This document shows, piece after piece, positions 60,902-64,000 of a stretch of 64,000 nt of DNA. Positions within the stretch are counted from its first letter, which is position 1. Each line of letters begins with the position of its first letter. This DNA is from an uncultured Gemmatimonadaceae bacterium. Lineage in GTDB: Bacteria > Gemmatimonadota > Gemmatimonadetes > Gemmatimonadales > Gemmatimonadaceae. The notes beneath the pieces were generated by a model. The model was given only the letters and a program-made list of their open reading frames with translations, was not told the DNA's origin and did no database searches. The position numbers and the translations under genes are program-made. The DNA lies in the NCBI GenBank assembly GCA_963822945.1, contig CAWGJO010000012.1, positions 32,001-96,000 of the forward strand, written 5' to 3'.

Positions 60902-62504
<1,603 letters not shown>

Positions 62505-62517
62505 ATAACTGAGAAGA

Positions 62518-62667
62518 GGCGGAACCGAGAAACGACGCAGGGCCGAGACTACGCAGGGCATGAACAGCGCAGGGCCGAAACCGCGGGGATGTGGAGGAGT
62601 TGAAACAGCGGATTTGGGAAAGGACGAAACAGCGAATTCGGGAAGTTACGAAACAGAAAGATACGGC
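62518..62667 (+). repeat. Left arm: 16-bp tandem units, then GAAACAG-led 24-bp units
   Basis: ggcggaaccgagaaac/gacgcagggccgagac/tacgcagggcatgaac/agcgcagggccgaaac; gaaacagcggatttgggaaaggac/gaaacagcgaattcgggaagttac/gaaacagaaag. Confidence 0.8.
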
Positions 62668-62703
62668 GTGGGGTGGATTGTAGCCGCAGGCAGCATATCC
62701 GGG

Positions 62704-63078
62704 ATGCATCGTGCCGTTATGAATACGGCGACCAACGTGCGGGATCTGAAGGTCTGGGACGCGGCGCGAATGCTGGCCCGTGAAGTGCGCCGGGTAGCGG
62801 AGGCCGCGCGGGGAGAGGGGTCGGGCGACGTGTGGGCCCAGGCGAAACGTGCCGCCGACTCGGTTGGGGCGAACATCGCCGAAGGGTGCGGGCGCCCGAC
62901 GACGGCCGACCGGCGTCGGTTCTTCTCAATCGCGGTCGGCTCCCTTCGCGAAACCCAACATCATCTGCGTAGCTGCCACGACTATGGCCTGCTCGAAGAA
63001 CGAGAGTACCTGCGGCTGGCAGGCCTGGCGAGCGTCACACGGCGCATGCTCGAATCCCTGTCGGCCCGCCTGCGCTGA
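62704..63078 (+). CDS. Four-helix-bundle protein (23S rRNA IVP / Avd-like family)
   Basis: RDLKVW..A, QAKRAADSVGANIAEGCGR, FFSIAVGSLRET signature; start may be 62719. Confidence 0.9.
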   Translation: MHRAVMNTATNVRDLKVWDAARMLAREVRRVAEAARGEGSGDVWAQAKRAADSVGANIAEGCGRPTTADRRRFFSIAVGSLRETQHHLRSCHDYGLLEEREYLRLAGLASVTRRMLESLSARLR

Positions 63079-63130
63079 ACGTTGGATGCATGGACGGCTT
63101 GGAGGTCGAAAGGCGAAACGCTACTCCACC

Positions 63131-63290
63131 TTGTTGATCGCCGTTGATGGCCGTTGATGGCCGTTGATCGCCGTTGATCGCCGTTGATCGCCGTTGATCG
63201 CCGTTGATCGCCGCTAATCGCTGTCGCACGCCGCTGCACGCTGTCGCACGCTGTCGCACGCCGCTCCTCGTCGTTTCACGGCGTTTCAAC
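63131..63290 (+). repeat. 10-bp-period tandem array
   Basis: CCGTTGAT(C/G)G x7 (63141-63210) drifting to CTGTCGCACG-type units in the same register. Confidence 0.95.
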
Positions 63291-63320
63291 CCGCTTCTGG
63301 AGTGCTTCCGACTCCCCGCA

Positions 63321-63400
63321 GTTTCGGTCCTGCGCCGTACCGGCCCTGCGTCGTTTCGGTCCTGCGTGGTATCGGCCCTGCGTCGTTTCTCGGTTTCGCC
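63321..63400 (+). repeat. Right arm: 16-bp tandem units, inverted relative to the left arm
   Basis: gtttcggtcctgcgcc/gtaccggccctgcgtc/gtttcggtcctgcgtg/gtatcggccctgcgtc/gtttctcggtttcgcc. Confidence 0.85.
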
Positions 63401-63416
63401 GCTTTTCGGTTCGTGG

Positions 63417-64000
63417 TTACGCCGTAGCCAACTCCCCTTTCAACATCCTCTCCGCCAACTGCACATCATCCCGGCTGCCGATGTACAACGGCGTCCGCTG
63501 GTGCAATTCCGTGGGCTGTACGTCGAGCACGCGGTTCGTGCCGTCGCTCGCCAGCCCCCCGGCCTGTTCCACGATGAACGCCAGGGGATTGGCTTCGTAC
63601 AGCAGGCGGAGCTTGCCGTCGGGCGATTTGGTGTTGCGCGGATAGGCGAAGATTCCGCCGCCGAGCAGGTTGCGGTGGAAGTCGGCGACCAGCGATCCGA
63701 CGTAGCGAATGCTCAGCGGCTTGCGGTCGCCCTCCAGCCCGCGGTAGCGACGCATCAGCAATCGCACCTCGTCGCTCCACAGTTGCTGGTACGAGTCGTT
63801 GACCGACAGGTACCGGCCGACGGGCGGGATCTGAATGTTGGGATGCGAGAGCAGGAACTCGCCGATCGACGGATCGAGGGTGAATCCGTGGGCACCCTGC
63901 CCCGTGGTGTACACCAGCATCGTGCTCGATCCGTAGATGACGTAGCCCGCCGCCACCTGGCGCCGCCCCGGCTGCAGCATGTCCTCCATGACCCCGTCGC
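63417..64000 (-). CDS. fbp: Class 1 fructose-1,6-bisphosphatase (3' part; 5' end outside window)
   Basis: [34 protein letters not shown]. Confidence 0.95.

Follow-up and report, generated by a model that had tools for sequence, protein, structure and literature searches.

A four-helix-bundle gene and the dispersed tandem repeats that accompany it in a Gemmatimonadaceae genus

Between the genes for fructose-1,6-bisphosphatase (fbp) and methylmalonyl-CoA mutase of an uncultured Gemmatimonadaceae bacterium lies a small gene, antisense to the operon and bracketed by two long inverted arms. What this cassette is, and how the gene is related to the arms around it, is the question raised by the locus. 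Positions given below are those of the window, the whole stretch of 64,000 nucleotides that was analysed; its source genome is designated G000. In the preliminary description of the window, the cassette was taken to be a small, possibly mobile element akin to the intervening sequences of 23S rRNA.

The cassette and its protein

Both host genes are read from the minus strand. The upstream gene is the class 1 fbp, the 3′ part of which lies in the window (63417..64000), and the downstream gene encodes the mutase large subunit (60902..62504), with PF01642 matches on both of its pieces. The reading frame of the mutase is shifted by a single additional base near 62022, which is absent from the nearest relative, G012, and is likely an assembly error. 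No Shine-Dalgarno sequence was seen ahead of the mutase ATG (62502-62504). The pairing of the arms was confirmed: 62507-62559 and the reverse complement of 63359-63411 are identical at 46 of 53 positions, the perfect 24-base core (62523-62546/63372-63395) extends in neither direction, and weaker pairing continues inward to GTTGAAAC at 62599 and GTTTCAAC at 63283. Without gaps the arm pair reaches 79 nt at 81% identity. One arm ends 2 nt from the mutase ATG and the other 5 nt from the fbp stop (63417-63419), as had been described.

The mutase-side arm (62507..62600, purine-rich on the plus strand) is a degenerate array of a 16-base unit with the core CGCAGGRCCGAWAC, followed by an inner tail. 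The motif of this tail is repeated in a 24-base unit detected by TRF in 2.3 copies (62602..62656, plus strand). The fbp-side arm (63290..63411, purine-rich on the operon strand, minus) consists of about four 16-base units with an outer lead and an inner tail. The segment 63133..63264 (plus strand) holds local arrays that do not pair, first of a 10-base unit, GTTGATCGCC, in 8.9 copies and then of related decamers; they occur nowhere else in the genome and are shorter in G012. In predicted folds the arms close a stem near the stop and start codons, in line with the earlier proposal that the element loops out as a stem, and folding of the region gave z = -3.9 against 20 shuffles. No Rfam match was obtained at E 0.1 for five loci including the cassette, and no flanking direct repeat of the target-site duplication type was found among the repeat families shown. 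On the operon strand two -10-like hexamers, read by eye and 13 nt apart, lie at 62657..62682 (TACAAT at 62682-62677, TATCTT at 62663-62658). They form a putative internal promoter for the mutase, and a similar motif persists at the gene-less site of G004.

The enclosed gene had been described as an Avd-like gene spanning 62704-63078. Its family assignment was borne out by the profiles TIGR02436 (81.2 bits, cut-off 24) and PF05635 (87.1 bits, cut-off 33.8), while the start had to be revised. In all 11 orthologs a YAnnnT hexamer is placed exactly 6 nt ahead of the matching start codon, CATCGT at 62707..62712 (plus strand) in the window, and the same spacing is found at 562 of 89,506 ATGs genome-wide; because of this, the gene most likely starts at 62719 and not at 62704, and encodes a basic protein of 119 aa (62719..63078, plus strand). 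A -10-like hexamer at such spacing marks a leaderless transcript, and the gene is probably transcribed leaderless from its own antisense promoter. Judged by dN/dS values of 0.02-0.29 in the six ortholog pairs computed, it is under purifying selection.

The orthologous proteins have a pI of 9.5-11.5, and the structure model (pLDDT 92.7) consists of four helices. The best matches in both sequence and fold were Xcc0516 (2gsc; Z 17.9, rmsd 1.9 over 110 residues, profile E 4e-27) and BT_0352 (2rld; Z 17.8, profile E 3e-13), which are solved PF05635 structures to which the texts consulted assign neither a function nor a link to repeats. Against Avd the model gave Z 14.0-14.9 (14.0 for 4dwl) with rmsd 1.7-2.8 over 105-114 residues and 10-11% identity, values of Z only about 1 above those of unrelated helical bundles (13.9 downward). 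A sequence profile search with the protein did not reach Avd. According to the model the protein has the Avd fold, and by comparison with 2gsc and Avd it is predicted to form a basic, Avd-like (homopentameric) ring. We know of no catalytic role and no recognised catalytic motif for the PF05635 four-helix bundle.

The junction and the arms in related genomes

The fbp-mutase junction was followed through 41 genomes, in which 40 fbp matches were found and 30 examined: 17 loci of the genus and 13 of the outgroup, the latter including the unpublished G022 and one locus without a downstream mutase. In eleven of the 17 genus genomes this junction is occupied by an ortholog of the gene (57-99% identity), antisense and flanked by arms, in the same orientation in every carrier and with a gap of 691-938 nt between the host genes. 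The gene is missing from the other six (G003, G004, G006, G009, G014 and G015), where the gap is 33-194 nt, and from all 13 outgroup loci, so that relatives with empty junctions exist. The gap of about 7 bp predicted to remain after removal of the cassette does not correspond to these real empty sites in the genus, and in five of the 13 outgroup loci the stop and start overlap; insertion into a once-tight operon junction, as had been suggested, is supported. Remnants of arms or promoter persist in the gene-less G004 and G009.

In a tree of fbp and mutase the genus forms a clade (support 100) in which the six gene-less genomes are scattered. Both the grouping of all gene-lost genomes (p-AU 6e-5) and that of all carriers (p-AU 2e-5) were rejected, and an rpoB tree of 15 genomes (without G002 and G008) agrees with this tree. 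One insertion followed by several independent losses is the simplest reading of this pattern. The earlier idea of a cassette that lands in different operons was not upheld, as the carriers share one ortholog at one junction in one orientation and the empty genus sites read as losses. Among the joints listed from contigs of eight metagenome runs (presumed to be DNA, depth 2-5), none skips the cassette. One joint in these contigs connects opposite strands; its sides are 38 bases long, and it most plausibly reflects a further copy of the repeat family.

The arms had been regarded as the ends of a single cassette; they are in fact two members of a dispersed family of 16-base units that the earlier reading missed. 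A BLAST search of G000 with the arms gave 29 arrays. Besides the two of the cassette, 27 are spread over 20 further sites (two of the 27 are weak, E about 0.008). The 27 are arranged as seven gene-less inverted doublets and 13 single arms. Many arrays abut stop or start codons (gene ends being judged from open reading frames by eye), and in those that could be placed the purine-rich strand is directed away from the gene. At least five of the seven doublets lie between co-directional genes and one lies between convergent genes. In the inner tail of seven of 24 arms (stricter pattern) a GGCCTNCGGCC hairpin is present, one per doublet and none reversed, and this hairpin is absent from the focal cassette; we take it to have a UNCG loop as RNA and a GNA loop as DNA of the other strand. 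The gene labels ruvB, queA, acs, pth, ychF, rimO, bipA, asnS and atpA were assigned from the translations and are presumptive. At G000:C35:23285-25865 a pyrimidine-rich arm lies between the inferred promoter and the start of a host gene, presumably acetyl-CoA synthetase, and a purine-rich arm follows its stop, ahead of a terminator-like hairpin; pairing between the 5′ and 3′ ends of this mRNA is conceivable. A search of GTDB contigs with an 18-base arm sequence gave 36 loci, 11 of them in records named Gemmatimonadota or Gemmatimonadaceae.

DNA between arms was found in both orientations. Two doublet centres are reverse complements between G000 and G012, and at the locus of a paralog associated with octamer arrays the DNA between the arrays, which includes a DUF520 gene, has the inverted orientation in seven of 15 genus genomes that do not group together on the trees; none of 12 orientable outgroup loci shows the inversion. 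In G000 this locus (C21:61400-62620) follows a sigma-70 gene, and its octamer arrays enclose a second four-helix-bundle gene as well as the DUF520 gene. These comparisons indicate that the arms recombine and that the DNA between them has flipped repeatedly, reshaping operons. The focal gene is unflipped in all 11 carriers, perhaps because the putative mutase promoter lies inside.

Repeat words, gene variants and paralogs

Two repeat words are found in the arms of the carriers, and their genome-wide abundance was counted with patterns picked by eye from the arms. Exact copies of word A (CGCAGGRCCGAWAC) number 81 in G000, 93 in G012, 47 in G001, 30 in G008, 26 in G007, 22 in G005, 19 in G011 and 8 in G010, all of which carry the gene with word-A arms. 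In the gene-lost genomes the counts fall to 0 (G003, G014, G015) or 1 (G004, G006, G009), and in the carriers with word-B arms to 0 (G002, G016) or 1 (G013). Word B (GCGCSGRCAAGAAC) is present in 52, 35 and 24 copies in G002, G013 and G016 respectively, and in 0-2 copies in the other 38 genomes. Reversed-pattern controls gave 0-1 matches for word A and 0-3 for word B. The cassette itself accounts for 1-8 word matches per genome in the genomes listed (G012 aside), and outside the genus word A has 0-2 copies per genome in the 147 genomes searched, which include two unpublished ones. All genomes are metagenome-assembled with 72-99% completeness, so counts are of assembled repeats, some of which can be missing from such assemblies.

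Individual sites show the same dependence. Six gene-less junctions were compared: the carriers G012 (6/6) and G001 (5/5) have intact arms there, and in the gene-lost G006 (6/6), G009 (5/5) and G003 (6/6) the arms are absent or eroded, two comparisons overall being without an anchor. At two of the six, G013 has word-B doublets sharing one centre; at these two junctions G010 has one intact, and G004, G014 and G015 have none. The disappearance of the repeats is therefore genuine, and they have not taken on another word. When arms were matched to one another, a genome's own arm ranked first or second in eight of 11 cases; the matrix separates word A from word B, and does not separate genomes within A.

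The proteins associated with word B form a clade (support 92/94), and alignment columns 5, 60, 70, 96, 97 and 115, which separate them from the word-A proteins, are candidate specificity columns. Exchange of a word-B allele was considered and is not established: the gene tree rejects the grouping of G016 with G010 (p-AU 0.024), but a word-B clade is compatible with the host genes (p-AU 0.235), so word B may reflect shared ancestry.

Presence of other enzymes was also compared with the words. No Y1 transposase (PF01797) was detected in the 11 carriers, G000 among them; it was found in three of 17 genus genomes, all gene-lost (G003, G009 and G015, two of these matches being weak fragments). Reverse transcriptase (PF00078) was found in four of the 17 and not in G000 (88% complete). 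Neither presence fits the word pattern. Taken together, it is very probable that the repeats depend on the presence of the gene.

With other words, paralogs show the association in a weaker form. G000 has four family members: besides the focal one, two have arms of other words and one is armless. The expectation that paralogs would have inverted arms thus held for two of three and failed for the remaining one. Octamers of the octamer paralog, counted as the sum of two patterns, number 19-250 in nine of nine holders (one frameshifted) and 0-10 in seven of eight non-holders. The exception is G014, in which 51 matches and no matching paralog were found at 97% completeness. G000 carries two octamer words and a single such gene; its octamer families are large, with 135 and 115 pattern matches. 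The third paralog's heptamers do not separate the two groups: holders have 7-65 copies and non-holders 0-10, with controls of up to 15 (G000 and G010 left out). Junctions with left and right arms of different families also occur in G000, for example at C20:311298-311629 and C17:69493-69745. The armless, divergent member (G000:C20:203331-203645) lies beside a gene we take to be atpA; it is apparently kept in most genus genomes and is possibly a domesticated form.

Family-wide, a homolog was found at E 1e-25 in 80 of 151 genomes. From 30 loci fetched, two of the genus, one unpublished and two with short flanks were dropped. Inverted arms scoring at least 40, each with its own word, flank 20 of the remaining 25 homologs and none of 21 control windows. 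The paralog at G007:C458 has direct-repeat units of about 100 nt on its flanks, not short inverted arrays.

Explanations and comparison with known systems

High copy numbers of the repeats are confined to genomes that retain the gene, and the word changes with the gene variant, which makes it likely that the protein recognises and sustains the repeat family. We favour the explanation, with a probability of about 0.6, that each protein recognises its own word and sustains the arrays, that host recombination homogenises and spreads them, and that fold-back makes inserts at junctions tolerable. The link between gene and repeats is a correlation, and its direction and molecular route are inferred. 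The gene is single and long resident at one site, and its protein would arise from leaderless antisense transcription. The ligand of the predicted basic, Avd-like ring would be single-stranded nucleic acid containing the word or its hairpin; the relatives of the protein favour RNA in this role, although strand tests did not show RNA. Pairing of the arms would fold back the insert and place the stop of the upstream gene close to the start of the downstream one, which would make inserts in coupled junctions tolerable. The arm copies would be homogenised, and occasionally spread, by recombination between arms; as no catalytic role of the protein is known, this recombination would rely on host enzymes. 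Once the protein is gone, the arms would bring no benefit or do harm, and would be deleted. Stop-to-start coupling alone was discarded as a full explanation because single arms and a convergent doublet exist.

The cassette may instead act as an mRNA intervening sequence, the arms pairing in the fbp-mutase transcript and being cut by RNase III. Their purpose would then be processing or stability of the operon mRNA, with the protein at most a helper. The long stem predicted near the stop and start and the co-directional genes around at least five of seven gene-less doublets fit such a role, as does the Coxiella 23S rRNA intervening sequence, in which a 28-bp stem is cut by RNase III and heptamer repeats precede a gene of the same family (the passages of PMC4990558 on this element). 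Over the 11 cassettes G-U pairs also outnumber A-C on the operon strand (85 vs 55), but no such bias is seen in G000 (13 vs 14) or in five of its gene-less doublets (24 vs 34); the wobble tests disagree and do not settle the RNA strand. The gene, however, is antisense with its own putative promoter, so the looped RNA would not encode it. The convergent doublet, the 13 single arms and the flipping of doublet centres relative to the mRNA between G000 and G012 are also difficult to accommodate, and RNA processing alone does not account for the erosion of all arms upon gene loss. This role is compatible with recognition and maintenance of the word by the protein, and we regard it as unlikely to be the principal one.

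It is somewhat less likely still that the gene is a passenger, captured between two arms of a family that another host factor makes or homogenises, so that loss of this driver led to decay of the arms and collapse of the cassette. The octamer arrays kept in G014, the overlap of heptamer counts between holders and non-holders, the protein's lack of a recognised catalytic motif and the promoter and arm remnants at the gene-less site of G004 would all be expected of a passenger. They are to be set against purifying selection on the gene, the promoter-like hexamer ahead of every ortholog, the arms with a word of their own around most family-wide homologs, the different words borne by different paralogs of one genome, and the failure of Y1 transposase and reverse transcriptase to follow the word. 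Joint movement of gene and arms to new operon junctions, as an autonomous mobile cassette, is very improbable. Paralogs do occur at several other junctions of the genus, some in one or two genomes only, and the outgroup loci are uniformly empty; yet there is one copy at one site in all carriers, the best-scoring paralogs are 30-50% identical to the focal protein, and the joints listed from the low-depth, presumed-DNA runs include none that skips the cassette.

Among known systems, REPIN-RAYT offers the closest comparison. As outlined in parts of PMC3337134, each of its repeat types has a single gene copy, which lies between repeats of that type and is long resident at one site; many gene-less inverted doublets are found elsewhere, and each paralog has a word of its own. 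The RAYTs are IS200-related HUH/tyrosine transposases. The present system is similar in its single-copy, long-resident gene flanked by its own repeat type, in its dispersed gene-less inverted doublets (seven, with 13 single arms, in G000) and in the tie between repeat type and gene variant (words A and B, and the octamers with one exception). It differs in the partner, an all-helical PF05635 bundle with no Y1 match, and in the arms, which are tandem arrays of a 15-16-base word whereas REPIN-RAYT repeats are single palindromes. Because the partner is no HUH transposase, the system is not a member of REPIN-RAYT. When transposition of doublets was checked at six junctions, these proved to be old, shared sites at which the centres are homogenised per genome and flip, and no fresh insertion was seen. 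Insertion sequences and MITEs differ as well, for there is one copy per genome at one site and not multiple near-identical gene-bearing copies.

ORF-bearing 23S rRNA intervening sequences share with the cassette the protein family, the complementary ends enclosing the gene and the short tandem repeats in the arm. The S23p ORF of Coxiella is in sense orientation, probably not expressed and decaying, according to the same passages (PMC4990558). Here the gene lies between protein genes, is antisense in 11 of 11 carriers, has its own putative promoter and is under purifying selection; being outside rRNA and antisense, the cassette is not a 23S rRNA intervening sequence. Avd of the diversity-generating retroelements (4dwl, 8ub7) resembles the protein in fold and basic character. 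In the portion of 10.1101/2023.10.23.563531 drawn on here, Avd forms a pentamer, and a single RNA stem-loop is contacted by all five protomers. A UNCG-loop hairpin is common to the Avd-binding RNA and the gene-less doublets. The differences are the neighbours, here fbp and mutase with no reverse transcriptase found in G000, the lack of the UNCG hairpin in the focal cassette, and the low identity with no sequence-profile match.

Abundant short tandem arrays are also formed by the GGGAATC repeats of Xanthomonas, with 70 convergent inverted pairs among 186 patterns (PMC4692102, in part), and by TAACTGA in Beggiatoaceae (PMC4679880, in part); inverted pairs are thus a further likeness of the Xanthomonas repeats. 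The main texts of both papers contain neither 'helix bundle' nor 'intervening', and within them no PF05635-type partner gene is proposed. In the literature searched, with supplements and most subscription papers outside its scope, no description of this gene-plus-repeat system was found.

To our knowledge, the large family PF05635 includes two solved structures and no member of known function, and short tandem arrays at bacterial gene junctions have so far been described without a cause. A wider proposal, which we put forward only tentatively, is that PF05635 proteins are sequence-specific masters of tandem-repeat populations: word recognition by each paralog would recruit host recombination or synthesis enzymes, which plant and rewrite arrays at gene ends. 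If so, the family would be a transposase-free counterpart of RAYT-REPIN. The rRNA intervening sequences and Avd would have branched off from it, and orphan repeat families, the Xanthomonas GGGAATC pairs among them, would find an explanation. The genus provides natural knock-outs, in six genomes through several independent losses, and two natural variants in words A and B. With these and the candidate specificity columns, the function of PF05635 and the cause of the arrays become one question. If the protein sustains repeats without being a transposase, this would be a route for the maintenance of repeated DNA distinct from RAYT-REPIN, insertion sequences and retroelements.
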